From an archaeon (GTDB lineage: Archaea > Nanobdellota > Nanobdellia > Woesearchaeales > GW2011-AR9): a stretch of DNA of 64,000 nt. A model generated the notes under the pieces. That model ran no database searches and had not been told where the DNA came from. It saw only the letters and a program-made list of their open reading frames with translations. The stretch is taken from the NCBI GenBank assembly GCA_030704845.1, contig JAUYKZ010000023.1, forward strand, positions 14,262 through 78,261, read 5' to 3'. The position numbers were made by a program, and so were the translations under genes. Position 1 is the stretch's first letter. Every line of letters starts with the position of its first letter. This document shows positions 1,851 to 28,847 of this stretch, in pieces.

Positions 1851-2228
1851 TTAATACTTACAACCGGAAAACTGGGATAGTTCTTCTATAGTTTGATATC
1901 CTTCATAAAAAGTTTCATCAATTTCCCAGGTAGGGAAATATTTTATATCTTTATCATCGCAAAGTTGTTCTTCTACTTCGGTTCCGTCGCAATCAACATA
2001 TTTATGTTTAAGATAATTCCAACCTTCTCCAAGAGTTTTTTTCTGTTCTTTACAAGGCATGCACCAACTCGCCCCATACATTACCGCTTTTTCAGCTAGA
2101 CATTGACCGAATTGAATTTCTCTTTCTGATTTTGAGAGTGGTTTTTCTTGAGTTGCCCCACATCCTAAGGTTAGAAGAAATGCTAAACCAACTCTTTTTA
2201 TTGTATCCATCAAATTATATATACTCAA
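1851..2228 (-). CDS. secreted thioredoxin-fold protein (CxxC, lipoprotein-like signal)
   Basis: N-terminal hydrophobic signal ending in LGCG. It has a WCMPC redox motif. The true start is possibly the internal Met at MDTIKR. Confidence 0.5.
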   Translation of the reverse strand: MSIYNLMDTIKRVGLAFLLTLGCGATQEKPLSKSEREIQFGQCLAEKAVMYGASWCMPCKEQKKTLGEGWNYLKHKYVDCDGTEVEEQLCDDKDIKYFPTWEIDETFYEGYQTIEELSQFSGCKY

Positions 2229-2316
2229 CGCTAAATGAAATTTGGAACTTAATTCATTTAGCGTTTGTATATACCAACGAAAAGTTCACAAAAATACTTT
2301 TCGTTCAGTATATATT
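2217..2316. repeat. Copy A of a perfect ~97-bp inverted repeat; partner at 28751-28847
   Basis: Read directly: atatactcaacgctaaatgaaatttggaacttaattcatttagcgtttgtatataccaacgaaaagttcacaaaaatacttttcgttcagtatatat. Its reverse complement appears at 28751-28847. Each copy contains two internal hairpins flanked by TATATA. Confidence 0.8.
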
Positions 2317-2422
2317 AAAGACTGCATTTAAGAGTTTTGTTAATAGGGTATATTCTAAAAGACCATTAGATGTTTCAGATGTTTCCAAAATCTTTATATC
2401 TATGCCATTTATTCTTTAAGAA

Positions 2423-3223
2423 ATGAATCTTGTCGATATACATTGCCACTTGAATCATGCAGCTTACAAAGATGATTTAGATGAAGTTCTTGAAAGAGCA
2501 AAAAAAGCAGGCATGAAAGCATTAGTTGTATCTGGAGTTAATCCAGTTTCTAACAAGGAAGTTTTGGCTTTGGCAAAAAAATATCCAATTATTAAAGCGT
2601 CTTTAGGAGTTTATCCTATTGACGCATTAGGTTTAGCTGAGGAAGAAATTGGTTTACCTCGCCAGACAGTTCCAATAAATTTAGATGAAGAATTTACATT
2701 CATTGAAGAAAATATTGATCAGGTTATTTCTATTGGTGAAATTGGGATGGATTTTCATTGGGCTACTAAGGAAGATACTTACGAAAAACAAGCAGAAAAT
2801 TTTAGGAAAATTATTCAATTTGCAATTAAAATTAAGAAACCAATCGTAATTCATTCGAGAAAAGCTGAAAGAGAATGTTTAGAAATTCTTGAACAAGAAG
2901 TTCACGGAGAAATTCCAATCGTGAATCATTGTTTTTCTGGAAAGAAAAATTTGATTAAAAGATCAGCTGAACTTGGTCATTATTTTTCAATTCCACCGAA
3001 TGTTCTTCGTTCGCAGAGTTTCCAGACGTTAGTTAAGATGGTTGATCTTAAACAACTTCTTACAGAAACGGATTCACCATATTTAAGTCCTTTCCCAGAT
3101 CAAAGAAATGAGCCAGTAAATGTAATTGAATCGATTAAAAAAATAGCAGAGATTAAAGAGATTTCTGTCGAAGAAGCTGCAGAAGCTGTCTGGGAAAATT
3201 ATGTAAAGGTTTTTGGCGAATAA
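2423..3223 (+). CDS. tatD: TatD family hydrolase/deoxyribonuclease
   Basis: MNLVDIHCHLNH start and metal-binding His/Asp pattern typical of TatD (ETDSPYL near the C-terminus). TAA stop. Confidence 0.8.
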   Translation: MNLVDIHCHLNHAAYKDDLDEVLERAKKAGMKALVVSGVNPVSNKEVLALAKKYPIIKASLGVYPIDALGLAEEEIGLPRQTVPINLDEEFTFIEENIDQVISIGEIGMDFHWATKEDTYEKQAENFRKIIQFAIKIKKPIVIHSRKAERECLEILEQEVHGEIPIVNHCFSGKKNLIKRSAELGHYFSIPPNVLRSQSFQTLVKMVDLKQLLTETDSPYLSPFPDQRNEPVNVIESIKKIAEIKEISVEEAAEAVWENYVKVFGE

Positions 3224-3257
3224 AATGTTTGATAATTAATTATAATTAATTTTAATT

Positions 3258-4526
3258 CTACCTGGGCAATCTTCCATTTTCAGTTAAATCATTCACTAGA
3301 AATCTTCCAATGACATAATCCGGAACATATAATAAATGGGCAATAACTTCTTTGAGCCCATAAGAATCTTTATAATTTACGATGGCTTGAATTTGTTCAT
3401 CATTGAACGAAAAATCAGCGAAAAATCTTTTTGCATATTCATATTCTTCTTTTTTTCTCTTTTCAAAATCATGCCACTTATGATGAAGACGTAAATTATA
3501 TTTTCTGACGATTCCGTCAAAAATATTCATCAGATGTTTCTCTTTAGGATTTCTATTAGTTACTTGCCAAACAGCTTCTTTTTCCATTGCATATTTCTTA
3601 AATGCTAATTGAATCATGGTTTTTGTATCTTCAATACCTTTAGATAAACATCGATCAGAAATAATCAAATGAGCCTCATAAGTTGCTTTAGCACATCTCT
3701 TAAACAGCAATTCGGTCGGATTTAATGATCGTGAATGAACCATGTGTTTCCCATATTTATGTAGAATATATTGTTTGGTATTATTAAGAATGAATAGACT
3801 TTTGAAACAAGAATAAATTCTTTTTTCATTGTCGTGTTTTTCTAAAGTTAAAATATTATGCATTCTATCAGCCAATTTTACTCTAATAGCTATCTCTTTG
3901 ATATCATCATCTGTAGACCTAAATATTTGACCAATGGAGCGGAGATAAAAATCTCTTTTATGTCTAGTCAGAAGTTTTGTTACAGAGATAATTATTTTAA
4001 CAGCTTCTTTAAGATTTGTTTCATTTCGGACAAAATCAAACAATTCTTCTTCTAACTCTTCAAATAACTCTTCTTCGTATCTATCTAAATTTTTAATTTT
4101 ATTTATTTTCTTACCTTTTTTATACAAATCAACTTTTTCTTCTACTAAATCATGGATTATGCCGATACATAAAGTAATTTCATCAGTTATCCCGGCTTGT
4201 TTTAAAGCAAGAACTGTATTTATTGGGTGAAGAAAAGAAGGTTCACCATTTTTACGTAACGGAAGTTGGGCGTATGTTTCTCTGGTTATTTGGTAAAGGT
4301 ATGAAAAAAGGGGAAAGAAAGGAGATTTTTTTTGAATTAGTTCTTCCGGCAGAAGAATTTTAGGATTAGCTTTCCATAGCTTTAAGTGATGATACTCTTT
4401 ATATTCAGCTGATAGTTTACGTGCAAAAGCCATTCTTTGCCTTGGATTAATCGAATGATTTAAAAGTTTCGCCAGATTTTTCTCAAAATGCGTTTTAAGG
4501 CAAAAAAGAAGTATGGGGAATATCAA
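3258..4526 (-). CDS. HD-domain protein resembling the SpoT/Mesh1 (p)ppGpp hydrolase domain, with insertion and C-terminal extension
   Basis: Contains LHPINTVLAL...IGIIHDLVEE and RVKLADRMHNILTL. This matches the RelA/SpoT HD hydrolase signature (HP...HD...KLADRLHNMRT). Confidence 0.55.
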   Translation of the reverse strand: MIFPILLFCLKTHFEKNLAKLLNHSINPRQRMAFARKLSAEYKEYHHLKLWKANPKILLPEELIQKKSPFFPLFSYLYQITRETYAQLPLRKNGEPSFLHPINTVLALKQAGITDEITLCIGIIHDLVEEKVDLYKKGKKINKIKNLDRYEEELFEELEEELFDFVRNETNLKEAVKIIISVTKLLTRHKRDFYLRSIGQIFRSTDDDIKEIAIRVKLADRMHNILTLEKHDNEKRIYSCFKSLFILNNTKQYILHKYGKHMVHSRSLNPTELLFKRCAKATYEAHLIISDRCLSKGIEDTKTMIQLAFKKYAMEKEAVWQVTNRNPKEKHLMNIFDGIVRKYNLRLHHKWHDFEKRKKEEYEYAKRFFADFSFNDEQIQAIVNYKDSYGLKEVIAHLLYVPDYVIGRFLVNDLTENGRLPR

Positions 4527-4868
4527 ACTAGAAGATGCCCATTTTGTGAACGTTTAGCGACCCATGAAAACTCTCAGGGGGTAGGTGTATGTCACCAACA
4601 TTCTGAACAAAAACTGGATGAAATTAAATGTACTTGTGGCAGTTGGTTGGAGACTAAATCCGGTAAATTTGGGCCTTATTTTAATTGTCTTCGTTGTGGG
4701 AATATTTCTTACCAGAAAGGAATGGAGATGAAATCTATAACTATGAAAGATGTTCCAAAGAAGGTTGTTATTGAAGTGAAGAAGCCTTCCTTAACTACAA
4801 GAACATTTACAACTAAATCAGAACCAAAGGAAATCACGATAAGTACTAATGACGTGGAATACTTTTGA
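4488..4868 (+). CDS. zinc-ribbon protein (C4, topoisomerase-type zinc finger-like)
   Basis: CPFCE...CHQH and CTCGS...CLRCG cysteine pairs. Confidence 0.35.
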   Translation: MRFKAKKKYGEYQTRRCPFCERLATHENSQGVGVCHQHSEQKLDEIKCTCGSWLETKSGKFGPYFNCLRCGNISYQKGMEMKSITMKDVPKKVVIEVKKPSLTTRTFTTKSEPKEITISTNDVEYF

Positions 4869-5012
4869 GTGTTTAAAGATTCATCAATACCCCATTACCA
4901 CAACATTTATATCTTTCTTCAATAAGTGATTATCATTATACTAAAAAATTTCGATAGGAATTTTTAAGGCGTACAATACCCCGACCATTTAGGTCGAAAT
5001 TTTTGGTATCAC

Positions 5013-5089
5013 AAAAATCTGCTGTAAGGGAAAGTGTTTGTTCATATTCCATCCTTTAGGGTGGAGTAGAACACTTTCAGCAGATTTTT
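5013..5089. repeat. long imperfect intergenic palindrome (nested stems; inner arms GAAAGTGTT / AACACTTTC)
   Basis: aaaaatctgctg...cagcagattttt outer arms with nested gaaagtgtt...aacactttc. Lies between the zinc-ribbon and NYN genes. Confidence 0.5.
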
Positions 5090-5112
5090 TATGATTCAAA
5101 GAGGTAATTATT

Positions 5113-5634
5113 ATGACTACATTAGTAAATCAATCAGTTGCAATTCTTTGTGATGGAAACAATATCGAAAGAAGTATCCATGAACAAGCCGGAAATAATC
5201 GAACCATGATTAATTTTGACAAACTTATCCCCCGCTTATTGAATAACCGCGGTTTAAATCGGCTAATTTATTTCAGGGAAGGATTACAAATCTCTGAAAA
5301 ATTAGCTGGAAGGTTATACGACAAATATTACGGTTCAGTTTTGCCATGTCATAAATCTGCAGACATTCCATTAACAATTAAAGCAACTCAATTATCATCA
5401 AAAGTTGATACGATTATTATTCTATCTGGAGATTCAGATTACGTTGAACTCGTTCGCCATTTAAGGGGTGAAGGTGTTCGGGTAGAAATTGCTGCAGTCG
5501 AAAAGACAACGGCTAAAATTCTTATCGACGAAGCAGATCATTTTCATCCAATTACTCGGGAAGATTGGTTTGTTTATGCACCTACCCGAAAATCGTTGTC
5601 GGATAAATCACCTACAAAACCTGATCGGAAATAG
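5113..5634 (+). CDS. NYN/LabA-like nuclease domain protein
   Basis: VAILCDGNNI ... ILSGDSDYVELVRHL pattern of NYN (LabA) domains. TAG stop. Confidence 0.55.
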   Translation: MTTLVNQSVAILCDGNNIERSIHEQAGNNRTMINFDKLIPRLLNNRGLNRLIYFREGLQISEKLAGRLYDKYYGSVLPCHKSADIPLTIKATQLSSKVDTIIILSGDSDYVELVRHLRGEGVRVEIAAVEKTTAKILIDEADHFHPITREDWFVYAPTRKSLSDKSPTKPDRK

Positions 5635-5675
5635 TTATTGATCCTTTGATCATTCGATGGTAATATAATTTAGAA

Positions 5676-6440
5676 TCATGAAGATGGTAACATAATCTCT
5701 TCTTCATCTTCCCATTTTTCTACATATTCTTCTTCAAATTGTTCGTGATTAAAATAATGTAAGAATTGCCACCAACGTTGGTGGAATTGAGTTTTATTAA
5801 ACCTCTCGCTGGTTTTTAGTCTATTGATTAGTTCCTTCGCTTTTTTATGTGGGTCTTTACTGTAATTCACAAATCTAAATGTTCTTTCAGCAAGAGAAAT
5901 CGCCATTACTTCTTGCATGGTTGAATCATAATCCATTATATTTTTATCTTCATGAACATATGGGAAGGTAATGTAATGTAATGCATGTCCAGTTTCATGT
6001 ATTACAACTCGATATAATTCTCTCCAAGGAGATTTGTCATTTATTTTAATGTATGACCCATTACCATATTCATGTTTACCAACTATAGTTAATCCTAATT
6101 TGGTATTAATATCTTTACTCTTTTCATCAAATAATTTACCATCTTGAAAATTGATGTTTTTTAGAGATTCTTCAATTGTTCTTTCTACTAATGTCTTATC
6201 TTTATGAACATATTCTTCAAAAAATGGCCTATACAGTTTACTCAGAAAAGATATAGTTGGTTCAATGGCAAGACAAATTTTATCTGATGGTCCAACATCA
6301 TATCTTGGTATATAAACTAAACCATGTCTTGTCTTGGGATCTCTATGAAGACTAAGGATAAGATCGGTAACTTCTGCATATTCTTCGGAATTTGGATCTT
6401 TTTCAAAACGAGAATATGTTACTTTTCCTACTTCTTCCAT
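5676..6440 (-). CDS. putative zinc metallopeptidase (HExxH)
   Basis: VVIHETGHALHY motif. No other family assignment is possible by eye. Confidence 0.4.
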   Translation of the reverse strand: MEEVGKVTYSRFEKDPNSEEYAEVTDLILSLHRDPKTRHGLVYIPRYDVGPSDKICLAIEPTISFLSKLYRPFFEEYVHKDKTLVERTIEESLKNINFQDGKLFDEKSKDINTKLGLTIVGKHEYGNGSYIKINDKSPWRELYRVVIHETGHALHYITFPYVHEDKNIMDYDSTMQEVMAISLAERTFRFVNYSKDPHKKAKELINRLKTSERFNKTQFHQRWWQFLHYFNHEQFEEEYVEKWEDEEEIMLPSS

Positions 6441-6505
6441 ATCTATGGGGTATAGTCGCTTCTTTTATATAGGTAGGGTATTAAAGGTATATTCATGGTA
6501 TATTC

Positions 6506-7018
6506 ATGGAAATATTAGAAGAAATGCTTAGAACTTTTCTTATAGGAAAAGGTGATTTAGCAGGATATTTGCCATTATCTTATATTGAAGAAGAAAACAA
6601 TTCACTGTTTAGAGAATTGGAAGAAAATCCGGGATTTAATAATTGGGCTTTGGAAGAAGTTAAAGCAGTATACAATTTAATAATTCCTTTTGTTAAAAAA
6701 GAAGAAGAAGTGTTTATAAAAATTCATTCTCTTGCTATGAAATCTGGAATTGAAATAGCTTTGACTGATGAAGCATACTGCGCTGCTGTACGTGAAACAT
6801 TTCTAACAAGAGAAGAATTCGTTAATCATAGAATTGGCATGCTTGATTTATCAAATAATCTTATAACTGAACTTTATGAGGCATGTAGAAATGCTGGTCC
6901 TTTCGGTGATGTTTTAGCGGAGATTTATCATTCAATTATTGAACAAAGCCCCGGTGTTAATATTGATGAACATCTTCCTAAAATAGACAGTATTGCAGAC
7001 AGAATCTATGGTAAGTAG
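6506..7018 (+). CDS. hypothetical protein
   Basis: Long ORF with coding-like composition. No recognisable motif. Confidence 0.3.
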   Translation: MEILEEMLRTFLIGKGDLAGYLPLSYIEEENNSLFRELEENPGFNNWALEEVKAVYNLIIPFVKKEEEVFIKIHSLAMKSGIEIALTDEAYCAAVRETFLTREEFVNHRIGMLDLSNNLITELYEACRNAGPFGDVLAEIYHSIIEQSPGVNIDEHLPKIDSIADRIYGK

Positions 7019-7089
7019 AATTAATAATTGTTCTGAGTAACTAGGTGTAACTAATCTTTATATAATCTGTTTTATATTTTAGATTTAAC

Positions 7090-8091
7090 ATGGTTAAAGC
7101 AGGAATTATCGGGAGAGGTTTAATCGGTTCTGAGTTATATAAACGATTGATTAAAAAAAAATGGGATGTTGTTGGGGTTGCTAACAGAAGTGGTTTTTCC
7201 AAGAATTCATCCGCAACTGGAGCTGTAATTCCTATAGCCGTAAGATATGATACCCCCTCCGAGGTAATGGATGCTTTCTTTAAAGAAGATGTTGATGTAA
7301 TGTTTTTAGCTATTCCAACTCTTGACGATGGCCAAATTGCACAGGAATACATTAAAGATAGTATCTCTGCGGGTATTCCGATTGTAACTTGTGAAAAGGG
7401 AGCATTGGGAAATTATTTTAATGAAGTGTTTAATCCAGAAATGCTAGGATATAGTGCTGCTGTCGGTGGTGGAACCAGACTTCTTAGATATGCCAGAACA
7501 CAATGTGGCGGGCAGGTTGAGGAGATCCATGCCGTTGTTAACGGAACATTAAATTATATTTTTGAAGGTCTAAGTAATGGTCGAAGTTTGGGGGAAGTTG
7601 TTGACGAGACAATCGGGTTAGGTTATGCTGAACCGGGTACAGAAAACCCGTTAGATGTATTAAATAAAGAAGCGGTTGGAGATGTACCGATGAAGGCGGC
7701 TATCTTGTACAATGTTTGTGGATTAACTGAAAATAAAATTAGGGCTAAAGACGTCGAAAGAAAAGAGTTATCTGATAAAGATTTATCTAGTTTAGTAAGG
7801 GAAGCAAAAAAACGTAGATATATAGTTTCTTTTACAAGAGATGGCCGAGTGGAGGATGTAATTGGTGGATTTAAATGTCAAATTGGTGAATGGAGAATAT
7901 CTGCCGGATTTAAAAATATAGACGAGAATCCTTTATATCATTCTTTAATGCCGGAAGGTGTTAACAATGCTTTGTTAATTTCTGAGGGTAGATATGGAAA
8001 AGATGGACATTACAAAGTTTCTGGTCCTGGAGCAGGAGCAGCTCCAACGGCATCAGCGATGATTAAAGATGCAGTTGATTTGTTGAAGTAG
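7090..8091 (+). CDS. homoserine dehydrogenase family protein
   Basis: N-terminal Rossmann GIIGRGLIGS. It has the VVNGTLNYIF and GLGYAEPGTENPLDV segments characteristic of homoserine dehydrogenase. Confidence 0.6.
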   Translation: MVKAGIIGRGLIGSELYKRLIKKKWDVVGVANRSGFSKNSSATGAVIPIAVRYDTPSEVMDAFFKEDVDVMFLAIPTLDDGQIAQEYIKDSISAGIPIVTCEKGALGNYFNEVFNPEMLGYSAAVGGGTRLLRYARTQCGGQVEEIHAVVNGTLNYIFEGLSNGRSLGEVVDETIGLGYAEPGTENPLDVLNKEAVGDVPMKAAILYNVCGLTENKIRAKDVERKELSDKDLSSLVREAKKRRYIVSFTRDGRVEDVIGGFKCQIGEWRISAGFKNIDENPLYHSLMPEGVNNALLISEGRYGKDGHYKVSGPGAGAAPTASAMIKDAVDLLK

Positions 8092-8095
8092 AATC

Positions 8096-8233
8096 TGCTC
8101 TTTCCACTGGTGTGTTCACCAGTGGTTTATATCAAGTTGAACATTGGTAGGAAAGAGCATGGTCACAAATTCGACCAGAGCGAAGCGAACATGCCACCGG
8201 TCTATTGACCGGTGGTGGTCGAATTTGTTTGAC
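8096..8233. repeat. two adjacent intergenic stem-loops (tgctctttcc...ggaaagagca with inner ccactggtg/caccagtgg; gtcacaaattcgacc...ggtcgaatttgtttgac with inner ccaccggtc/accggtgg)
   Basis: Read directly. Sits between the homoserine dehydrogenase and IMPase genes. The spurious minus-strand ORF 8116-8319 overlaps it. Confidence 0.5.
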
Positions 8234-8294
8234 AATTTTTTTGAACTGATTTTATTCAGAAAACCTTTTATACTCACTTCCTTCCAGAATTTAA

Positions 8295-9083
8295 ATGGTT
8301 GAAAGATTAGATGTGGCAAGAAACGCAGCTATTCTTGCGGGAGAATTAATTCTGAAGAGATATTCTGAGAATGATTTCACAGTTAAACTTAAATCTGGAA
8401 AAGAAGATTTTGTTACGGAAGTTGATTTTCTTTCAGAAAAAATGATTATTGAAGAAATTAAACGTTATTTTCCTGACGATGGAATCATTGCAGAAGAAAG
8501 TGCAAAATGCGAAATTTTGGATAAAGAGTTCGTTTGGTTGATTGATCCATTAGATGGTACTCGTGGTTTTATTCGAGGTAATGGTCATTTTGCGATACAT
8601 ATCGGACTTCTTCATAAAAATAAACCAATTATGGGGGTAGTTTATGCACTAATAAGTAAAAAGTTATATTATGCAGAAAAAGGTAAGGGAGCATTTTGTA
8701 ACGATGAATCAATTTTAGTTTCACAACATAGAGGAGATAAACTACGTTTAGTTTCTAGTGGCAGAATTGTTAAAAATAAAAAATTACAAGATATCTATAA
8801 TAAAATTCCTCATTCTGCAATTATTTTTCAGGGGGGTTCCGGATTAAAAATATGTGGTATTGCTGAAGGAAAATATGACGTAGTTATTACTGAAGCTAAT
8901 AGTTATAATGAATGGGATTTATGTGCCCCTTCAATAATCTTGGAAGAAGCTGGCGGAATCATGACCACGTTAGATGGAAAACAGATAAAATATAATCGTG
9001 GGTCGATGGATTATAATCAAATGATTATCATTTCTAACGGGGAAGTACATCAAGAAATTTTACGATTGTTAAGGGAATCTTAA
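8295..9083 (+). CDS. inositol monophosphatase family protein (IMPase/FBPase/CysQ-like)
   Basis: WLIDPLDGTRGFIRG metal-binding motif and a C-terminal WDxxA-like segment. Confidence 0.7.
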   Translation: MVERLDVARNAAILAGELILKRYSENDFTVKLKSGKEDFVTEVDFLSEKMIIEEIKRYFPDDGIIAEESAKCEILDKEFVWLIDPLDGTRGFIRGNGHFAIHIGLLHKNKPIMGVVYALISKKLYYAEKGKGAFCNDESILVSQHRGDKLRLVSSGRIVKNKKLQDIYNKIPHSAIIFQGGSGLKICGIAEGKYDVVITEANSYNEWDLCAPSIILEEAGGIMTTLDGKQIKYNRGSMDYNQMIIISNGEVHQEILRLLRES

Positions 9084-9122
9084 CCAAACCTTTTTAAAGA
9101 GAACGTCTTCTTAAGATGTCAT

Positions 9123-9200
9123 AGCGGGGTGGGGCAGTAAGGAGTGCCCGCCGGGCTCATAACCCGGAGGTCGGAGGTTCAAATCCTTCCCCCGCTACCA
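9123..9200 (+). tRNA. initiator tRNA-Met (CAU), archaeal type, CCA encoded
   Basis: agcggggtggggcagtaaggagtgcccgccgggctcataacccggaggtcggaggttcaaatccttcccccgctacca. A1:U72 pair, three G:C pairs closing the anticodon stem, anticodon CAT, T-loop ttcaaat. A possible TATA-like ttttaaag lies about 28 nt upstream. Confidence 0.8.
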
Positions 9201-9388
9201 TTTTCTAACTGTTTGGACAACTACCACAACGGGAACCACCTTGCCATCTTCCGCAACAGGATATTTTTCTTTTAGGTCTAGAATATGTGTTATTTGAAGA
9301 ATAATGGGTGGAGGGGGTACTATTCCCAGCGTAGTATGATGCCATAGAAGATTCATAAATCATAATTAAGTAGATGAAGGATTACTAT

Positions 9389-9934
9389 TTAAAGTTTCTT
9401 TAACAATTTTCCTAAAATTTTGAAATCTTGTTCCATTTCCTGCTTTATAGTAGGAAACCTCATCGCTGCAGAAGGGTGATAAGTTACAAAATATTTTTTA
9501 GAAATAGTTTTTCCATGTATCTCGGTTATTTTACCTTTACCTATCATGGAAAATAATGCGCTTTTTCCAAGAAGAATAATTAATTTAGGTTTGATTACTT
9601 CAATTTGCTTATCTAACCATAATTCTCGGCATGTTTTTAATTCTTTATTTGATGGGTTTCTATTTTTTGGCGGATGACATTTGACAGCTCCGGTGATGAA
9701 AGTATCTTTTCTAGAAATCCCAGCTAGGTTTATCATTTCATCCAGAACTGTTCCAGATTTTCCAAAAAAAGGAAGACCTTGCCGATCTTCTTCAACTCCC
9801 GGAGCTTCACCGATTAACATTATTTTAGAAGTATTCATTCCTTCACCGGGAACAGTTAAAGTTCTTCCTTTCCATAATGGGCAGGAAGTACATTTCCTGA
9901 TACCTTCCGCTAATGAGAAAATTGTTTGAGTCAT
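9389..9934 (-). CDS. udg: uracil-DNA glycosylase, family 4
   Basis: GEAPGVEEDRQGLPFFGKSG motif and an N-terminal CTSCPLW Fe-S cysteine cluster. Confidence 0.75.
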   Translation of the reverse strand: MTQTIFSLAEGIRKCTSCPLWKGRTLTVPGEGMNTSKIMLIGEAPGVEEDRQGLPFFGKSGTVLDEMINLAGISRKDTFITGAVKCHPPKNRNPSNKELKTCRELWLDKQIEVIKPKLIILLGKSALFSMIGKGKITEIHGKTISKKYFVTYHPSAAMRFPTIKQEMEQDFKILGKLLKKL

Positions 9935-9943
9935 GTTTAAGGA

Positions 9944-10372: not shown

Positions 10373-10490
10373 GGTTGTTTAATTTGGTTTTTTTAATTTC
10401 TTAATTTGATTAGTTTGTATTTCAGTTAAGATTTAAAATATTTCTTTATTTATTACTATTTAAATTTTTATTTAACTCTTTCGTTTTTAT

Positions 10491-11558: not shown

Positions 11559-11642
11559 TATAGATAAAGAACAGGTATTCCTTTATAATATTTTATGCTC
11601 TAGAGCTGATTTTCAAAAATTTAAAGATTTAATGAAATCGGT

Positions 11643-12477: not shown

Positions 12478-12618
12478 GGGTCTCTTGGCTAATATGAAAC
12501 CCTCTTTATCTTTTGTATTAGCGCCCTGTCGGAGACGAGGCGGGTACTCGTAAGAGTACGATATCCGCCGTGCTCTAATACAAAGATTATTGAGGGTTTC
12601 ATATTAGCCGGGTCTCTT
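12478..12618. mobile_element. MITE-like element: 18-bp perfect terminal inverted repeats, 9-bp flanking direct repeats, GC-rich hairpin core
   Basis: The flanks both read gggtctctt (12478-12486 and 12610-12618). The TIRs are ggctaatatgaaaccctc (12487-12504) and gagggtttcatattagcc (12592-12609). The interior forms nested stems, including gtactc-gtaa-gagtac with a GNRA-type loop. Confidence 0.5.
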
Positions 12619-12996
12619 ATTCATTGATAAAGCAATTAAATAAATTAAGCAAAGCTTCTCTTCAACGAATCTCTAGCACATTGGAAAGCCGAGGTTAAAT
12701 ATCCGAAATCAGATGTTCGTTACACAAAAGCAGGATTTGAACCATTAACAGAGACCATAATCAGAAATGATAAAATCGGCATTATCATTTGGAGTGATAA
12801 ACCTCTTGGTATTATCATCCACCAAAAAGAAGCTGCTGAATCTTATGATCAATTTTTTAAAATAATGTGGAGTACTGCAATTCCTTAGATTATTCAAGTA
12901 ATATTGTTAAACTTTGTTTAGGATATATTAAACAATTCGTTTCTACTAAATTCAATTTCCGCTACTTTTTTAAACAATAACATAATCTAAGTATTT

Positions 12997-18388: not shown

Positions 18389-18408
18389 CTCCTCTCGGAA
18401 GTAGAAAC

Positions 18409-19961: not shown

Positions 19962-20054
19962 AGCTGTTTTTGAGCACTTCTTCTATATAAATTTATATCC
20001 TTTTTTAGAAGAGGAATCTTTAAAAAGAATGAAGGCTGGTAAGTCTCGGGGGGT

Positions 20055-20699: not shown

Positions 20700-20735
20700 G
20701 GAAACTACGTTAATTATTTAAAAAACGGGTCTTTT

Positions 20736-21401
20736 TTGAGTTCTATGAAAAAAATCATTACTGCAGACAATACAGAAACTTTCCTAAATGAAGAAGTTGG
20801 AGAGACATACCATTCTCATACCGGCGCAGTTGATGAAGCTCTGAAAAAGTATGCTATCCCTTGCAAGATTGCTGAGAAAGCTAAAACCGGGAAATTAAGA
20901 ATTCTGGACGCATTCTTTGGGATGGGATATAATTCTGCGATGGCTATCGATATCGCTTTAAAAGAAAATCCTGATTGCGTGATTGAAGTTTTTGGGTTAG
21001 AATTTGATCCAGAAATTATTAAGAAAATTCAGGAAGTAAACCCGCCAATTGATTTTTTTAAACATTACAAAAAACTTTCACCTACATCTCTAGAATTTAA
21101 GGAAGGTAATGTTACGGTTAAAATCTTACTTGGTGATGCTCGTGAAACGGTAAAAACTTTAACTGACGATTCTTTTGATGCCGTATTCTTTGATCCATTT
21201 TCTCCAAAGACAGCTCCGGAAATGTGGACGAAAGAATTATTTGAAGATGTTTATCGAATAATGAAAACCTCAGCTAATTTTGCTACTTATTCTTGTGCTA
21301 GAATGGCTAGAGATAATATTAGTGCAGCAGGTTTAATGTATGACGATGGCCCAATAGTTGGCAGAAGAGGACCTGGAACGATAGCTATGAAATGGATTTA
21401 G
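20736..21401 (+). CDS. MnmC-like SAM-dependent methyltransferase domain protein (DUF752)
   Basis: ILDAFFGMGYN ... FDAVFFDPFSPKTAPEMWTKELFEDVYRIMK matches the MnmC methyltransferase-domain signature (DxFSPxxNPELWT). TAG stop. Confidence 0.5.
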   Translation: MSSMKKIITADNTETFLNEEVGETYHSHTGAVDEALKKYAIPCKIAEKAKTGKLRILDAFFGMGYNSAMAIDIALKENPDCVIEVFGLEFDPEIIKKIQEVNPPIDFFKHYKKLSPTSLEFKEGNVTVKILLGDARETVKTLTDDSFDAVFFDPFSPKTAPEMWTKELFEDVYRIMKTSANFATYSCARMARDNISAAGLMYDDGPIVGRRGPGTIAMKWI

Positions 21402-21491
21402 AGAATAATAAAGTTTATTAATTGATTATTTTCTAATAGAATAAGATATTTCTTTATTGATGGATAGAAATGTCTTAAAAATGTTTTAAAA

Positions 21492-22025
21492 ATGGAGAGG
21501 TCAATTACAATGAAAAAACTACAAACATTAGCAATGATTTTAGGAATGGGTTTATCAGGATGTCAAGAAAAGGTTGATGTATCAAGTAAACCTACAGTGG
21601 AAGAATCAGATAAATCAGCTTACTCTTTATCTGAAAAAGTTGGATTTCAATATGACGTTGAAGGCGATGGAGGGGATTATTCCTTTAAGATCACTGGTTC
21701 TGGTTCCGAAATTACCTCCAGCCTTTTAATTAGCACTGGTAGAAGTGATGGATTGAGGTTATATGTATTATCTATAGATAGCAATAATGATGGTAAATTA
21801 GATTATGTTTATTATTCCGATCAGGTATTAGGATTAGATGTTTTCATACATGGACGTCTGGAAAATAATTCCAGAATCGTTAATGGCAATATGAATCCCA
21901 AGGAAGTAGAAACAATTTACCGAAGAGCATCTAAAAGGTATCTTGATTTCAAAAAGAATCATGGTATTGAAGAAAAAATATCTGCTTATAATCCTTCAGA
22001 ATTGATGAGAGTAAAAGAGTTTTAA
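21492..22025 (+). CDS. hypothetical lipoprotein
   Basis: Signal peptide with LSGC lipobox. Confidence 0.35.
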   Translation: MERSITMKKLQTLAMILGMGLSGCQEKVDVSSKPTVEESDKSAYSLSEKVGFQYDVEGDGGDYSFKITGSGSEITSSLLISTGRSDGLRLYVLSIDSNNDGKLDYVYYSDQVLGLDVFIHGRLENNSRIVNGNMNPKEVETIYRRASKRYLDFKKNHGIEEKISAYNPSELMRVKEF

Positions 22026-22036
22026 TTTTTTTACTT

Positions 22037-22630
22037 TTATTTTTTTTTGTTTCTTCCTCTCATCCTAACTTCTTCCAATCTATCTAGAATTTCTTTTCCG
22101 TTAGGATTATTTTCAGAATATCCTTGCAGAACATTTTCAAATAAGCCGGGAAGTTCGTAATGAGTACTTTCCAATGTTCTTTCAAGTAAAAACAAATCAA
22201 CAGCTTTATCTTCAGTTTTTTCTGAGAAAAATGATAAACCAAAATCAATAAAATGAAGAGCTCTATTTTCCTTATGAACAATCATGTTTGAAGTTGTTAA
22301 ATCGCCATGGATAATTCCGTTGGTATGTAACTCAGCTACTCTTAGACCAATCTCGCGAGAAAATGTATGGTCCATTACATCTTTCAGTTTTTCACCAGGT
22401 ATGAAATCCATCACGATGGACATTCTTTCATCGGAAAAATTCTTTAAATGTGGGGCTGGAAAATTAGTTTCTGCAAGTCTTCCAAGAACCTTAGCTTCTC
22501 TTCTGGTTCTAAATTTACGAAGAGATTCATCTAAATGGGGATAACGATATTTTTTACTGAACCTTTCTTTTATAACATCATTATGATCTTTGTATAGTAC
22601 AGCTTCCGCACCTTGAGCAATTTTAAGCAT
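22037..22630 (-). CDS. bud32: Bud32/PRPK kinase (KEOPS complex)
   Basis: Minimal RIO-like kinase of about 200 aa with an IIHGDLTTSNMIV catalytic loop. Confidence 0.7.
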   Translation of the reverse strand: MLKIAQGAEAVLYKDHNDVIKERFSKKYRYPHLDESLRKFRTRREAKVLGRLAETNFPAPHLKNFSDERMSIVMDFIPGEKLKDVMDHTFSREIGLRVAELHTNGIIHGDLTTSNMIVHKENRALHFIDFGLSFFSEKTEDKAVDLFLLERTLESTHYELPGLFENVLQGYSENNPNGKEILDRLEEVRMRGRNKKK

Positions 22631-22784
22631 AGAAGGAAAGAATAGACTTATTCTTTATAAATTATACTCAAAAACAAAAAAACTCTTAATTTATGTATGA
22701 AAATAAGTGGGTAGAAGTTTTCCTAGTTTTTGGTATCCCAAAGTGCGGTCATAAAAAAGAACTTTCCACACTTTGTTGATATTG

Positions 22785-23174
22785 TTAATCCGTTAGTGCA
22801 AAATAAAGAATTGTTCTGGTATCATCAGGTACAAACCCAACGAATGAATAAAGAAATTTACGGTCATTTTCAGATGGTTCCTTACCGGGAAAACAGGTTT
22901 CTTCTAAAAGTTTAACTCCGCCGCCAATTATGCCAATCACAATATCGCCCTTTTCATTTTCAGGGAATACTTTTCCACGAATAAGGTCGGTAGCATCGGT
23001 CTTTTCTACACTTATGGGGAGATATCTTTCCATAAAATATTCTAATGGGATTGCTGTAGCACATCCATACTCTCGATGAACATCTGCAGTAAAACTGGAA
23101 ACTCTTTCAATCACATCAGAGGAATATCCAGAAAAACCAACAATCCCTGATGCTAAAATGATTTGAGTTAACAT
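22785..23174 (-). CDS. hypothetical protein (possible KEOPS partner such as Cgi121, by adjacency only)
   Basis: ORF. No motif recognised. Confidence 0.25.
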   Translation of the reverse strand: MLTQIILASGIVGFSGYSSDVIERVSSFTADVHREYGCATAIPLEYFMERYLPISVEKTDATDLIRGKVFPENEKGDIVIGIIGGGVKLLEETCFPGKEPSENDRKFLYSFVGFVPDDTRTILYFALTD

Positions 23175-23220
23175 ATTTACTTAGTTTAGTCTCCTTTTTA
23201 AAAAGGTTATGATAAATATG

Positions 23221-23547
23221 TTATAATTTGCTTAAAACAGTATCTATCTTCTGTTTTAACATTGGTTTTGGAGAAAATCCTACAATTCTATCTGTTTCCT
23301 CGCCTTTATTGAAAATTATAAGGCAAGGTATTCCAGTAACCATCATGTTACCTGCAACTTGCGGATATTCTTCAGTTGAAATCTTTGCGAATTTTAATTT
23401 TCCTTCGTATTCTTTACTTACCTCTTCAAAGATTGGAGTAAGCATTTTACATGGACCACACCATGATGCCCAGAAATCTACGATAACTGGCAAATTTGAT
23501 TCAAGAACCTCTTTTTGAAAACTTTCCTCAGTTAATTCCATGACCAT
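23221..23547 (-). CDS. trxA: thioredoxin
   Basis: [17 protein letters not shown] active-site motif. 108 aa. Confidence 0.8.
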
Positions 23548-23667
23548 TTTAATTACCTCAATAGCTTGGAAACTTGCTTCCTTTTAATTGTTTTTCTATT
23601 GGGAATATCTTGTTGAGGGACCATCATCGCCGTAATCTTTATAAACAAATCTTTCCTAGTAAATGAC

Positions 23668-24801
23668 GTGATGGATGTGAAAATAAAGTATCTTGTACTT
23701 TTGGTCTTATTTTTATCACTTTTATCAACCTCTGCTTTGGCAGTTGAAAATGATTGTTTATACTACTTTTATGGAAAAAATTGTGTGGAATGTAATGATG
23801 CGGAAAAATATATCGATTCTTTAATAGTTAAATATCCTTCTTTAAATTTACAGAAATATGAAGTGTATCATAGCCCAAGTAATGAAAAATTACTTGATGA
23901 TTATTTCGAACATTTTTCTGTTGAGAAAAACTCTCGGGGAGTTCCCGTAGTTTTCATGCATGGAAGTTATCTAATTGGTAATGATTCAATCAGACAATAT
24001 TTGGATGGTTCCATCAGAGAAAACAATAATGTAGCTTGTCCTTCTTTAACAGACTCATTTGCTATTGGTTTAGTTGGATCAAAACAACCTTATCATGTTC
24101 TTGACACAATCTCATTTACTTTAATTGCCGGGTCTGCAATTCAAGATAGTACTTCAATGGCAATTCTTGCTGTTCTACTTATTTTCCTTCTTTTACTAAG
24201 CGTAGTTAAAGATAAACAGAAAAGTATTCAGTTGGGAGTTTTATTTGTAATGATGATTGTTGGATTAAATTTATTATTTGGGTTAGGTTTATTTAGAGAA
24301 TTTGCTTCTTCATCAATCTCAAGATATTTTGCTAAATTAATTGGTTTAATTGCCGTTTCTTTAGGTGCGGGCGGAATTTACGCTTTCTTCCAGCATAAAC
24401 CATCATTCATTAGCGAAGAATCTCGAGAACGGTTATTGAATAAATTAAGATTTTTTAGAACTCCCGGCGGAGTTGTTATCCTCGGATTTGTTACAGGTTT
24501 ATTTTCGTTAGGTTTGAGAAGTGAAGGTTTCATGACTTTGCAAAGTATTTCTATTAACAATGCAGCTGCATTAGCAGCTTTGCCCATGTTAATATTTTAT
24601 GCGATAATCTTTTCTGTTCCTTTTATTTTATTAATAGTTGCGATGTATAACATAAAAAAACATCTTGAACATAGAGCTAAGATTAAAGGAAAAGATTATG
24701 TAGATAAAGTTTTAATTTGGAACGAGCATCATCATCAAGTTCTTAATTTTGTTGTTAACGCAATCGTATTTGTGGTTGGTGTTGGATTATTAGTTGTTTA
24801 A
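23668..24801 (+). CDS. polytopic membrane protein with N-terminal thioredoxin-like CxxC domain (possible thiol-disulfide oxidoreductase)
   Basis: Signal peptide, then YFYGKNCVEC, followed by multiple hydrophobic helices. Confidence 0.35.
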   Translation: MMDVKIKYLVLLVLFLSLLSTSALAVENDCLYYFYGKNCVECNDAEKYIDSLIVKYPSLNLQKYEVYHSPSNEKLLDDYFEHFSVEKNSRGVPVVFMHGSYLIGNDSIRQYLDGSIRENNNVACPSLTDSFAIGLVGSKQPYHVLDTISFTLIAGSAIQDSTSMAILAVLLIFLLLLSVVKDKQKSIQLGVLFVMMIVGLNLLFGLGLFREFASSSISRYFAKLIGLIAVSLGAGGIYAFFQHKPSFISEESRERLLNKLRFFRTPGGVVILGFVTGLFSLGLRSEGFMTLQSISINNAAALAALPMLIFYAIIFSVPFILLIVAMYNIKKHLEHRAKIKGKDYVDKVLIWNEHHHQVLNFVVNAIVFVVGVGLLVV

Positions 24802-24802
24802 A

Positions 24803-25285
24803 TCAATTTAAATAATGGTCTTGTGAGTGTAAATCGGGTTTATTTTTTTCAGATATTGTTATGTTTACTTTTACTTTTGTTCCAGGTATTCTAGATCTTC
24901 TTAATGATAATACTTTTGTTTTAAACCTATATATTCCATCAACTTTCTCACCTTGATTTAATTCTAGAAATCCGCCATCAGAACATGCTGGTCGATTATC
25001 ATTACCAACTGAACAAAGGGAGTAAGATACAGATAAATCATCTGTTAGGTAAGAATCAGGGATTGTAAGATTAATTTTTCCTGCCACTTTGTAAACATCT
25101 CCATTTAAACGGCACATTTCTACATCTGAAGAGATATTTTCTAACCCTTCTTTATCTCCTTTAGTGGTTGTAATATCTTCGATACATTCGGTAGTTACAG
25201 CTACGGCTGGTTTAACGTCATCTGCGTTTGCATGGCAGGTATAAGTAGCTAGTAGGATTCCAATGGCAAGTTTTTTTGATATCAT
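24803..25285 (-). CDS. hypothetical secreted protein
   Basis: Signal peptide. Cys-containing. Confidence 0.3.
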   Translation of the reverse strand: MISKKLAIGILLATYTCHANADDVKPAVAVTTECIEDITTTKGDKEGLENISSDVEMCRLNGDVYKVAGKINLTIPDSYLTDDLSVSYSLCSVGNDNRPACSDGGFLELNQGEKVDGIYRFKTKVLSLRRSRIPGTKVKVNITISEKNKPDLHSQDHYLN

Positions 25286-25379
25286 TTTTCTTTCAATTCT
25301 CCATTATGCAAAAATTGCCAGAAAACCATTGACTTTAGTCAATGATGGTTGGCACATTTTTCTAGCTATTTTGCATCCT

Positions 25380-25455
25380 AAAAATGCGTAATTTAAATAC
25401 CGTCTTTTTCAAACCTTACCTTCAAGGCAAGGTAAGACGGTTTAACGCATTTTTA
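25380..25455. repeat. intergenic nested palindrome with arms taaaaatgcgtaa / ttaacgcattttta
   Basis: Read directly. Inner stems are taccgtctt/aagacggt and ccttacc/ggtaagg. Confidence 0.5.
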
Positions 25456-25492
25456 TGATTTTTTTAAATTCTTCTGTGATTTTTGTTCAATT

Positions 25493-26911
25493 CTAATCTT
25501 TATCGCAGATGCCTTCATACTCATTAAACATCCTGGTTACATCTTCTCTAGTAAATTTTCTGGGGTCAGGATTTATTTGATATCTAAAACTATTAACTAT
25601 GTTATCTACACAATTTCTATCAAAATATCCCAGATTTAAAGATCTCATCATAATTTCAAATTGTTTTTGCATACCTTCTTTAGATTGGTATTGATCAATG
25701 GTTTCTAAATATTTTTCCATTTCAGAAAAGGTTGTAATTCCACGTACTGCAAAATTTTTTACAATCTGATAGGGGTTTGGATAATTACTAATCCTATCAA
25801 TAAATGCTATTGGAAGTTCAATCCCAATGTTTAAAAGATCATTCATTCCTTTTAAATTTGATTTCCCAGATTTCTCTAAAAACTCTTTAAGGCATTCTTT
25901 CTCATTATTACATTGAGCAACATAGGTGCAATCACTTGATTCTAAGTGTCTTGATATTGAATATAATTTTAACGATTCTGGATTGATATTTCCATCTTCT
26001 TTCTTTTCAAAATCAAAATCTAACAATTTTCTATCACAAGAATAAACTTTTCTCCCGGGAAGGGAATAAGCAGCAACATTTGCTAAGTTTAATTCTCTGT
26101 CTCGACCTTCTCCGGCATTACAACTTGCAAATAAAACTATGGCGTCTTTATCAAATAATTTCTCGTAAGGTGAAAGAATTCTTATTAATTGATCCCAATG
26201 GATTATGATTTCATCTTCTCTTGTTTTTCCTTCAAAAGTTATTTCTTGTATATCTGTTATCAAAGAATATCTGCTACCGTGAGCTCCAAAAACAAGTCCA
26301 GCAACTTTTCCTTTCATTTTTCCTTTAACTATTGCTTCTCCATTTCTAAACAGTTCATTTATCGAAAATTCTATCATGGCTTTTCTTAATTCTTCTTTAC
26401 CACTAACCTCGTAAAGTACAACTCTATATCTATCTAAAAGGTCTTTAATTTTATCGGTTTTTTCTTCTAAAGGATGAATCCTAAATGGTAGACTGTGGTC
26501 ATATTTGCCCATGATAAACAATATCGTTGGTTTCTCAAGATCTTCTAATGGTCGTTTATTTAATGCTTCTAACACCTTCATAGAATATCTTTGGGGGTTA
26601 ATTATGAAATGGTTTGAATATAGGTTGCTTGTTAGTTTATCATATGCTCTAAACTCTTCCAAGTCCATGTTTTCGATAATTTCTTCTAGTTCTTCTCTTA
26701 CTTCTGAACTATATTCTTTGTCATAATTAGCTTGTTCTTCGATTTTTGTTTGGTAAAAGTTTAATAAATCATTTTTTGACAATTCAAGAACTCGAGTTTC
26801 ATATCTTTCTGCACTATTAAGATGTTGCACTGGAGCAGCGCATCCACTAAGAACTGTTGCGGCAGAAAGTACTAGGTTGCAGAGAGTTTGTTTAAGATTC
26901 ATTTTAATCAT
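25493..26911 (-). CDS. hypothetical lipoprotein (472 aa)
   Basis: Signal with LSGC lipobox. No domain recognised. Confidence 0.35.
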   Translation of the reverse strand: MIKMNLKQTLCNLVLSAATVLSGCAAPVQHLNSAERYETRVLELSKNDLLNFYQTKIEEQANYDKEYSSEVREELEEIIENMDLEEFRAYDKLTSNLYSNHFIINPQRYSMKVLEALNKRPLEDLEKPTILFIMGKYDHSLPFRIHPLEEKTDKIKDLLDRYRVVLYEVSGKEELRKAMIEFSINELFRNGEAIVKGKMKGKVAGLVFGAHGSRYSLITDIQEITFEGKTREDEIIIHWDQLIRILSPYEKLFDKDAIVLFASCNAGEGRDRELNLANVAAYSLPGRKVYSCDRKLLDFDFEKKEDGNINPESLKLYSISRHLESSDCTYVAQCNNEKECLKEFLEKSGKSNLKGMNDLLNIGIELPIAFIDRISNYPNPYQIVKNFAVRGITTFSEMEKYLETIDQYQSKEGMQKQFEIMMRSLNLGYFDRNCVDNIVNSFRYQINPDPRKFTREDVTRMFNEYEGICDKD

Positions 26912-27992
26912 CTACCTCATATTCTCGGCCATTTATTTCTTCAATTAATCTTACCGCTCTTTCAACATTGTTTTTCCGATCTGCATCTTTATATCCCCTA
27001 AATGAATCAACAAAGTTCTTTAGAGAGACTTCAGCTTGAAGATCAAAGTATAAACTTCTCTTATTGTTCTTTTCAATAAAATCAAAAAATTCTTGAGCCA
27101 TCTCTGGGTTCTCTACTCCAGTTCTAGCTAAATATCTAATGGTGTGTATTCCCTCATTATCAAATTCACGGATAATTTCGTAGGTCTCAGAATCATTCTT
27201 GGAAGAACTTAATCCTTCCATAATCATTTCAAAATTCTCTTTCAGATCTGAGTGAGAATCAGTTTCCATTAAATCTTTTAGTTCATCAAGAGCATCTCTT
27301 GCTAAAGCTACCTCTTTTTTAAGATCATCGTCGGTCTTAAGATATTCATGAATTGTTTTAGAGATTTCATAGGCAAAGAATTTGCTGGTTTTTTCTATAC
27401 ATTCCTCAGCTCTTCTCCAGTTTCCTGAATTAAGACCAATTGCTTCCATGTAATTTGGATCAGAGGATTTTTTTCTTGATTCCCCTACTACTTTTAGAAA
27501 ATCATATAATTTCTGTTTTCTGCGTGGATTACAAATGGATTCGTGAATAAAGCTGTTATTATATCCACTAGATTCAAAGAATTTATCAATTCCATCTTGC
27601 GTGGCTATTGGCGTTTCTTCATTATCGATATCAATTATGATTGGTAGTTGTTCTTTTCCAAACAAACCATATCTGTTCAAACAAACAATTTTAAAATCAG
27701 GCAATTCATCCAGACAAGCTTCTACTTCATCCTCAAGATCTTCGAAGGTTTTTGGTTTTTCTTCTTCCAGCTCTGGAATAATTCCTAATGGGTATAACTT
27801 TCTGGCTTTCTCCATGTTCCTTCGCAGATTCTCATTAATAAAAGGTTTTTTTGGGGTGGTACTACTTTCATAAACAATTTCTGGAGCAGGTTCATAGTTA
27901 TTAGCTGGTCTTGTTGGTGGTCTGTAAAGTCCTAAGGCTAAGAAAGCTGCTGCGCCTAGTCCAAGGATTCCAGTAGCTGTACGTTTATTCAT
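26904..27992 (-). CDS. hypothetical membrane-anchored/secreted protein
   Basis: N-terminal hydrophobic segment. Overlaps the downstream lipoprotein gene by 8 nt, suggesting an operon. Confidence 0.35.
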   Translation of the reverse strand: MNKRTATGILGLGAAAFLALGLYRPPTRPANNYEPAPEIVYESSTTPKKPFINENLRRNMEKARKLYPLGIIPELEEEKPKTFEDLEDEVEACLDELPDFKIVCLNRYGLFGKEQLPIIIDIDNEETPIATQDGIDKFFESSGYNNSFIHESICNPRRKQKLYDFLKVVGESRKKSSDPNYMEAIGLNSGNWRRAEECIEKTSKFFAYEISKTIHEYLKTDDDLKKEVALARDALDELKDLMETDSHSDLKENFEMIMEGLSSSKNDSETYEIIREFDNEGIHTIRYLARTGVENPEMAQEFFDFIEKNNKRSLYFDLQAEVSLKNFVDSFRGYKDADRKNNVERAVRLIEEINGREYEVDD

Positions 27993-28310
27993 CTTTAATC
28001 TCCAATTTTAGAATAGACTTCTTATCTACAAGCAGAATTCCTTTTCCCATAGCTGTAGCAACTTCTAAACACCTAACTTTGGTATTCTCATCCCAGTCTA
28101 GATTGCGAACTATATCGATAGGTAAAGAAAGCTTGTACTGGTGCTTGTTTTTAGTAATTTTACGTTCCATGAGTAATTATTGAGTAATCAAAGTGCCTAT
28201 TTTATAAGTGTTTCCATGTAGATTTACTAAAATCCAAAATATCAAAAAATCAAGATGATTAACGAAAGTCTTATATATCTTGATATATATTCGATATCAA
28301 TTGATACAAA

Positions 28311-28622
28311 ATGTCTACTCAAATATTACAATTCAAAGATACTGAAGTTCTAAAAAAGGATGATGACCAGATTAAAAGATATCCCAACTTAAATACTGTT
28401 TTAATGGTAGAAGATTTTCTTAAAGAGCATAGAGATATGCCTATGAAAATCTCTGAAATCAGAAAAAATCTTCCTAAACAAGTTATGAATCAAACACTGC
28501 AAGTAATTCTAGAGTATCTCTGGAGAAGCGGAAAAATTATATATGGTCCGAAGGGTGTCCAGTGGATTTATTCAGAACCTCAACATCTAAAGAAGATGTT
28601 TGATGATACTTTGGAGATTTAG
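28311..28622 (+). CDS. hypothetical protein (possible winged-helix fold)
   Basis: ORF only. Confidence 0.25.
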   Translation: MSTQILQFKDTEVLKKDDDQIKRYPNLNTVLMVEDFLKEHRDMPMKISEIRKNLPKQVMNQTLQVILEYLWRSGKIIYGPKGVQWIYSEPQHLKKMFDDTLEI

Positions 28623-28750
28623 TAAAATGTTTGTTGGCAAGGAAGTAAGGGTTCTTTTGAAAGGTCAAGCTAAAGAAAGTTTTCTTGAATTAAAAAAAAG
28701 AGATGATAAAGAATCCCAAACTCTTCTAAACTCTATTAATAGAATTAGAG

Positions 28751-28847
28751 ATATACTGAACGAAAAGTATTTTTGTGAACTTTTCGTTGGTATATACAAA
28801 CGCTAAATGAATTAAGTTCCAAATTTCATTTAGCGTTGAGTATATAT
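28751..28847. repeat. Copy B (reverse complement) of the 97-bp repeat at 2217-2316
   Basis: atatactgaacgaaaagtatttttgtgaacttttcgttggtatatacaaacgctaaatgaattaagttccaaatttcatttagcgttgagtatatat. This is an exact reverse complement of copy A as far as I can read. Confidence 0.8.

Follow-up and report, generated by a model that had tools for sequence, protein, structure and literature searches.

The arms of a perfect 97-nt inverted repeat in a woesearchaeal contig are very probably copies of a small mobile element inserting at TA

Results

The inverted repeat and the structure of the element

We analysed a stretch of 64,000 nt (the window) from contig JAUYKZ010000023.1 of assembly GCA_030704845.1. 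It belongs to an AT-rich (34% GC) DPANN archaeon, whose close protein relatives are labelled Woesearchaeota or Nanoarchaeota. The window contains a perfect inverted repeat with arms at 2217-2313 and 28751-28847. Both arms are very likely (probability about 0.9) copies of one miniature inverted-repeat transposable element (MITE), which is 89 nt long, non-coding, composed of two palindromic sub-units and inserted at TA. Everything by which MITEs are recognised was found: a short non-coding sequence, inverted ends, dispersed copies, and target duplication together with presence/absence alleles. The two copies in the window are independent recent insertions, and their inverted relative orientation is incidental.

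The arms are 97 nt long, 100% complementary and separated by a spacer of 26,437 nt. Using a repeat search and a script for string identity, we confirmed that they are exact reverse complements, as a preliminary description of this DNA had stated. Its end point of copy A, 2316, had to be corrected to 2313, as bases 2314 and 2216 mismatch their partners. By our own estimate, about 1e-45 perfect inverted repeats of 97 nt are expected by chance in 64 kb at 34% GC. The parts of the two copies are as follows.

2217-2313, plus strand: copy A, exact reverse complement of copy B.
2222-2310, plus strand: MITE proper of copy A, 89 nt, with TA at 2220-2221 and 2311-2312.
2222-2269, plus strand: sub-unit U1, 48 nt, a palindromic hairpin unit (TACTCAACG-stem-loop-stem-CGTTTGTA), read from the sequence and the folds.
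2270-2271, no strand: TA joint between U1 and U2, in the pattern TA-U1-TA-U2-TA; in related contigs, further modules are connected by such TA joints, too.
2272-2310, plus strand: sub-unit U2, 39 nt, a palindromic hairpin unit (TACCAACG-stem-loop-stem-CGTTCAGTA), read from the sequence and the folds.
28751-28847, minus strand: copy B, exact reverse complement of 2217-2313.
28754-28842, minus strand: MITE proper of copy B, 89 nt, with TA at 28752-28753 and 28843-28844.

The two hairpins and TATATA motifs described earlier are real, and each copy has three TATATA-like motifs. Copy A begins with TACTCAACG and ends with CGTTCAGTA, which form a 9-nt terminal inverted repeat with one mismatch. Read inward, the two ends (TACTCAACG and TACTGAACG) are identical at 8 of 9 positions; with the flanking ATA the repeat comprises 12 nt (ATATACTSAACG), and its consensus is TACTSAACG. 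The terminal motif without mismatch occurs in the window only at the four element ends. The 89-nt element has no open reading frame (ORF) of its own. Its DNA fold has an energy of -22.9 kcal/mol (z = -8.3) and its RNA fold -30.3 kcal/mol (z = -7.8). Rfam searches of the whole window at the gathering threshold and of the element at E <= 10 returned only tRNAs and noise.

Filled and empty insertion sites

We compared the filled sites with related sequences that lack the element. Below, L-numbers denote contigs fetched for related loci, and P-numbers denote proteins. An exact empty allele was located via the protein database cluster of a NUDIX hydrolase gene. The filled contig L021 and the empty contig L046 are 100% identical over 3,322 + 211 nt and differ only by 91 nt (89 + TA). 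The empty site reads AAAA-TA-TATTAAT, and the filled site reads AAAA-TA-(89 nt)-TA-TATTAAT (L021 6156-6250 versus L046 3318-3322). Removing the 91 nt from the L021 copy restores the NUDIX frame, with a single Pfam match spanning the junction. The intact 174-aa protein P0369, encoded on L046, is identical to this predicted reconstruction. Beside it in the cluster stand 114-aa and 54-aa fragments, deposited as separate proteins from several assemblies. As filled and empty alleles have 100% identical flanks, the movement of the element is recent and polymorphic within one population. For 19 insertion sites, no exact empty sites were found in the fetched related loci.

Copy A is absent in three sets of syntenic relatives, namely L042-L045, whose flanking DNA is ~95% identical, and the more distant L040 and L041. 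The first set includes Ga0210057_1071858, a contig from a metagenome rich in the element. When L042-L045 are compared with the window, the BLAST breakpoints lie at 2222 and 2311 with a 3-nt overlap, which again gives 91 nt. Subtraction of 91 nt at copy B yields a 115-aa protein, whose best match is P0001 (90% identity, 100% coverage). The restored protein aligns without gaps with 11 homologues, and a conserved I-L-K motif is re-formed exactly at the junction. Removal of 91 nt from the copy in L010/L029 likewise restores a YdjM frame, and here, too, a single Pfam match spans the junction. Thus, the AT-rich intergenic setting previously ascribed to both copies applies to copy A, which lies between divergent genes, and not to copy B, which lies inside a protein-coding gene.

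A dispersed family

Searched with 20 nt of the left end, a collection comprising one genome for each prokaryotic species yielded seven more copies. Six of them are on different contigs of the Woesearchaeota metagenome-assembled genome (MAG) PCYG01 (CG10_big_fil_rev_8_21_14_0_10_32_24), and one is on a contig binned as 'Tagabacteria'. A scan of JGI metagenome contigs with 21 nt of the right end gave 25 contigs. The 95-nt core at 2219-2313 (ATATACTC...CAGTATAT) is common to nearly all family members, and the sequence shared across the copies runs from ATATACTCAACG to CGTTCAGTATAT over the same positions. In a blastn search of the fetched contigs with this core, almost all copies showed 98-100% identity; L031 and L016 (92%) carry more diverged variants. 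When the same locus in several samples was merged, 23 flank pairs collapsed into ~20 distinct flank contexts, and the flanks are unrelated to each other. The TA directly outside TACTC...CAGTA is invariant on both sides at all ~20 sites. The outermost base beyond it varies at two sites (C-TA and T-TA). Thus, the ~20 other sites bear out what the preliminary description had offered as a fallback, a dispersed element family. It had also taken many further copies as the sign of a simple dispersed repeat, and this is what we found. Its suggestion of a recent duplication or gene conversion stands as to recent duplication, while conversion between the arms is not needed, most copies being identical everywhere. 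The perfect identity of the arms is explained for the same reason by a recent burst of transposition.

Several copies adjoin scaffold gaps. The window's strain has its contigs in run SRR13727534, and its Logan assembly stops ~30 nt inside both copies; independent assemblies end inside both, as is typical when a repeat exceeds the assembly k-mer. Scans of viral contigs with both element ends gave zero matches, and therefore we see no link to a known virus. Identical copies are present on L006, L011 and L033; the remaining sequence that these contigs have in common with the window shows only ~80-83% identity. This hints that the element may have spread between diverged populations, although a gene fragment and a Fic-domain gene, on which the comparison is based, are a poor measure of genome divergence.

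The contig from the 'Candidatus Tagabacteria' MAG (L003, PFNV01000024.1) carries the same MITE together with a gene for a Hef-like helicase/nuclease containing an intein. Since such a gene is encoded there, the contig is probably a mis-binned archaeal one. We considered spread across domains on the basis of this copy and do not claim it.

Other short repeat units, Ua (49 nt), Ub (40 nt), Uc (40 nt) and Ud (55 nt), surround the MITE in the Crystal Geyser contigs L011, L017, L026, L018 and L012, several of them with ends of the TATACTGAA type. One to three TAs connect these modules with the element and with one another, in varying order. None of these modules is present in the window.

Possible mechanism of mobility

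The element inserts at TA, usually within A-TA-T; TA stands on both sides afterwards, and 91 nt are gained per insertion. The arrangement TA-U1-TA-U2-TA is what insertion of one unit into a TA bordering the other would produce. Like the mosaics joined via TA, it fits a series of such mutual insertions, after which the outer ends would have mobilised the composite. Copy A came to lie where the promoters of a thioredoxin-like gene and tatD diverge, and copy B inside a gene for a RelE/ParE-fold toxin-like protein. As the element encodes nothing, the transposase must be supplied from elsewhere; it may be a cut-and-paste DDE enzyme of the IS630/Tc1-mariner kind. The DDE enzymes of this group characteristically target and duplicate TA. 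Judging by the TA target and the inverted ends, features of the sequence only, this type is most likely. The IS630 family is present in archaea (PMC13343696).

At ~20 of ~20 sites TA is found on both sides, and the net gain is 91 = 89 + 2. A target consisting of a TA run also allows a duplication of 4-5 nt (ATAT, ATATA). We prefer the 2-nt duplication because two sites show C-TA or T-TA on one side. Several observations weigh against a MITE with TA duplication. The exact allele pair by itself allows a duplication of 2 to 5 nt (TA up to ATATA). Neither an autonomous parent nor a transposase with matching ends turned up in the window or in ~300 kb of related loci. This search covered the end motifs with up to 2 mismatches, and inverted pairs of ends that lie 0.5-3 kb from each other, share extended similarity and enclose an ORF; two weak end pairs on L012 were rejected as chance matches. 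By eye, no transposase-like ORF was seen in the window. The variant in L031 has two extra hairpins between U1 and U2 with no obvious extra TA. Finally, the strongly palindromic sub-units and the mosaic arrays recall elements of the REP/BIME type (repetitive extragenic palindromes and bacterial interspersed mosaic elements), which are moved by another kind of enzyme.

Alternative explanations

The last point leads to an explanation that we consider improbable, namely that the unit is a REP/BIME-like element or a palindromic element derived from IS200/IS605 (PATE), moved as a single strand by a Y1/HUH transposase, which would recognise its hairpins and insert it beside a short fixed motif without true duplication. 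The ends of IS200/IS605 elements are asymmetric and without inverted terminal repeats, whereas the conserved ends here are symmetrical, with A-TA-TACTSAACG on both sides when read inward. Neither a Y1 transposase nor a RAYT-like gene was seen in the window. In agreement with such an origin, both sub-units fold into strong hairpins, at whose base the nucleotides AACG...CGTT are conserved, and several unit types are concatenated in mosaics, as in bacterial BIMEs. In a TA-run target, moreover, a duplicated TA is formally inseparable from insertion beside a TA by an element that itself ends in TA. IS200/IS605 is reported to be the most abundant and widespread insertion sequence (IS) family in archaea (PMC13343696). 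It is scarcely credible that the 97-nt unit is an immobile duplicated gene for a small structured RNA, or a regulatory cassette (promoter/terminator), with selection maintaining the identity of the copies. Its fold is indeed very stable, we read its TATATA motifs as resembling archaeal TATA boxes, and copy A sits in a divergent promoter region. Against this, Rfam gave nothing above noise (best E-value 0.2, plant miRNA models), the flanks of the copies are unrelated, three different protein-coding genes are interrupted, and presence/absence alleles have 100% identical flanks. A more far-reaching idea, to which we give little weight, is an active modular system of hairpin cassettes in groundwater Woesearchaeota. 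In it, small palindromic units with ends of the TATACTSAA type would stack via TA and spread at 100% identity from one diverged population to another, and their TATATA ends might serve as portable archaeal TATA boxes, by which the control of adjacent genes would be rewired. If so, an inverted pair like the present one would have a latent capacity to invert the segment between its arms.

The preliminary description had proposed a strand switch, or a mechanism like phase variation, based on inversion of the 26 kb. Two 97-nt arms that are perfectly identical and inverted are in principle a substrate for recombination, homologous or site-specific, which would flip the 26.4-kb segment with thyA-folA-tmk and neighbouring genes. 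We found no support for this, and it is highly improbable. The halves of the split toxin-like gene are collinear and in register across copy B. At copy A, the gene order (deoxyhypusine synthase (DS), sigma-like and thioredoxin-like genes, then tatD and a 391-aa gene) matches that of relatives which lack the element. The ancestral arrangement thus persists at both junctions, and the segment is in its ancestral orientation. We also carried out the GC-skew comparison across the boundaries that had been suggested: there is no step at 2.2 or 28.8 kb, the skew tracks the local gene strand, and the cumulative curve climbs about equally fast within the bracket and beyond it. Near either arm, no gene for a recombinase or invertase was seen. 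Identical copies occur at ~20 unrelated sites, often singly on a contig. A mobile MITE, which happens to be present twice in opposite orientations, remains the reading that we favour.

Neighbouring genes and consequences of insertion

The genes next to the two copies are given below.

1851-2210, minus strand: thioredoxin-like lipoprotein gene, start codon at 2208-2210.
2423-3223, plus strand: tatD, TatD-family hydrolase gene, divergent from the thioredoxin-like gene and used to find orthologous contigs without copy A.
28311-28622, plus strand: intact upstream partner gene, 103 aa, winged-helix-like.
28627-28753, plus strand: N-terminal part of the RelE/ParE-fold 115-aa gene, starting MFVGKEV...; its frame continues into the MITE up to a stop at 28806.
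28845-29065, plus strand: C-terminal part of the same gene, one frame over (...KDNPQFGDP...NLYRVELSNYWRLLYTLEG...), stop codon at 29063-29065.

The 115-aa family is very widespread in DPANN (113-115 aa). In relatives, the genes for the 103-aa and 115-aa proteins are kept as a unit in differing neighbourhoods. Matches of the 115-aa family to the ParE_like and RelE/StbE profiles are below threshold, and a PDB sequence search gave no significant match. The AlphaFold model of the protein (pLDDT 84.6) has a beta-alpha-alpha-beta-beta-beta layout, and the PDB structures that match it best in fold, at target-normalised TM-scores of 0.7-0.77, are without exception YoeB, ParE and RelE toxins. Of the native protein, the disrupted gene still encodes ~42 N-terminal residues, to which the MITE adds a short tail. 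Truncation by copy B thus inactivates the predicted toxin-like gene and leaves its partner intact. We also considered that the element might be spliced out of the toxin-gene mRNA as an intron with a bulge-helix-bulge. The archaeal splicing endonuclease needs 3-nt bulges; the ends of the element pair as a continuous helix with one mismatch, and this possibility was rejected.

Copy A ends 11 nt upstream of the start codon of the thioredoxin-like gene, and the former upstream sequence is displaced by 91 nt. In our reading, the displaced sequence would include a TTAAAT box, which in relatives occupies a leaderless-type promoter position. Expression of the thioredoxin-like gene is probably altered. 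The TTTATAT box of tatD, 23-29 nt upstream of the ATG, is untouched.

In the comparison with L042, identity appears to jump at copy A, from 77-84% on the left to 95% on the right. We rejected a recombination breakpoint at the MITE: DS, further to the left, is again 94% identical, so that the jump reflects the fast evolution of the sigma-like and thioredoxin-like genes, which every comparison shows. Together these two genes (1075-2210) show 74-79% nucleotide identity to L042, and the flanking DS and tatD genes 94-96%. With L040, L041 and L042 taken into the comparison, the pair looks like a two-gene island that is fast-evolving or may have been exchanged. The sigma-like gene of this archaeal genome (1075-1791, minus strand) belongs to the bacterial-type sigma-70 family, with Pfam regions 2, 3 and 4. 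It does not stem from contamination, because it has the same position (DS, sigma, thioredoxin-like, tatD) in several related Woesearchaeota contigs.

Other features of the window

A second, unrelated MITE-like element of 123 nt lies at 12487-12609. It has imperfect terminal inverted repeats of 38 nt (GGCTAATATGAAACCC...), and a perfect 9-bp direct repeat, GGGTCTCTT, stands on either side of it (12478-12486 and 12610-12618). L008/L023 and L012 contain related copies. Beside it, at ~12650-12870 on the plus strand, there is a C-terminal gene fragment without a start codon, 83% identical to part of a longer ORF of L006/L011. The differences are mainly at third codon positions, and the fragment is probably a truncated pseudogene.

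Two coding sequences contain unusual inserts, both read from the translation. The ribonucleotide reductase gene (46623-50987, minus strand) has an apparent intein-like insert. The gene for a CDC48-type AAA ATPase (31790-34717, plus strand) has a long lysine/glutamate-rich, coiled-coil-like insert between the two ATPase domains. An Rfam tRNA match of 135 nt and 45.7 bits at 41534-41668 (minus strand), not called by ARAGORN, is probably an intron-containing archaeal tRNA. Between 61000 and 64000, the GC content rises from about 33% to 45%, and a cysteine-rich ORF lies there (63299-63943, minus strand). This region may be foreign DNA or an assembly join.

Discussion

In place of an attractive 26-kb invertible block of housekeeping genes, the window offers a documented, recently active MITE family in DPANN archaea. 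Little is known of the mobile DNA of these organisms with tiny genomes. At least three genes have been knocked out by the element; they encode a RelE/ParE-fold toxin-like protein, a NUDIX hydrolase and a YdjM-type protein. These knockouts, and the landing 11 nt upstream of a start codon, make it a real source of strain-level variation. The element also breaks short-read assemblies and splits gene calls, and knowledge of its sequence helps to curate Woesearchaeota MAGs. Copies that are 100% identical are a possible marker for tracking related populations or for finding the transposase.

The element apparently represents a new family of a known kind, with no new mechanism, the MITEs of a published census (PMC11602168) having been compared by description only. 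Several known systems resemble it in part; nearest in behaviour are bacterial MITEs that duplicate TA, namely the Correia elements (NEMIS) and the IS630-derived MITEEc1, RUP and Nezha. Like the Correia elements of Neisseria, it belongs to a class of ~100-150 bp, is non-coding, has terminal inverted repeats and inserts at TA; the Correia elements duplicate the TA, and the present element probably does so as well. Both also have many near-identical copies, fold into hairpins and often lie beside or inside genes. The Correia elements, too, are not known to have a cognate transposase. They differ in that they are bacterial, have terminal repeats of 26 bp and share no sequence with the present element, which is shorter (89 nt), has ends of ~9 nt, consists of two independent palindromic sub-units and is found in DPANN archaea.

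The MITEs derived from IS630/Tc1-mariner (MITEEc1, RUP, Nezha and the plant Stowaway) are alike in TA target, short inverted ends, small size and lack of autonomy, and also in the TA duplication, which is probable here. They differ in that a parent IS with matching ends is known. Among prokaryotic MITEs, the commonest ISfinder match is MITEEc1_IS630 (PMC11602168).

Non-autonomous elements with inverted ends are also found in archaeal genomes, among them the MITEs of the archaeal census, SM1-SM4 of Sulfolobus and the haloarchaeal MITEs. SM1-SM4 and the haloarchaeal MITEs derive from other IS families and have other duplication lengths. The automated census places a 'Woesearchaea' genome among the most MITE-dense archaea, with 105 per Mb (PMC11602168).

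The RAYT-associated REP/BIME mosaics of bacteria likewise consist of short palindromic units in variable mosaics and are mostly intergenic (PMC2817692). REPs differ in that they are 20-40 nt long, lack TA duplication, are tied to a Y1 transposase (RAYT) and very rarely lie inside genes, whereas the present element has symmetrical TA-flanked ends and three insertions inside genes.

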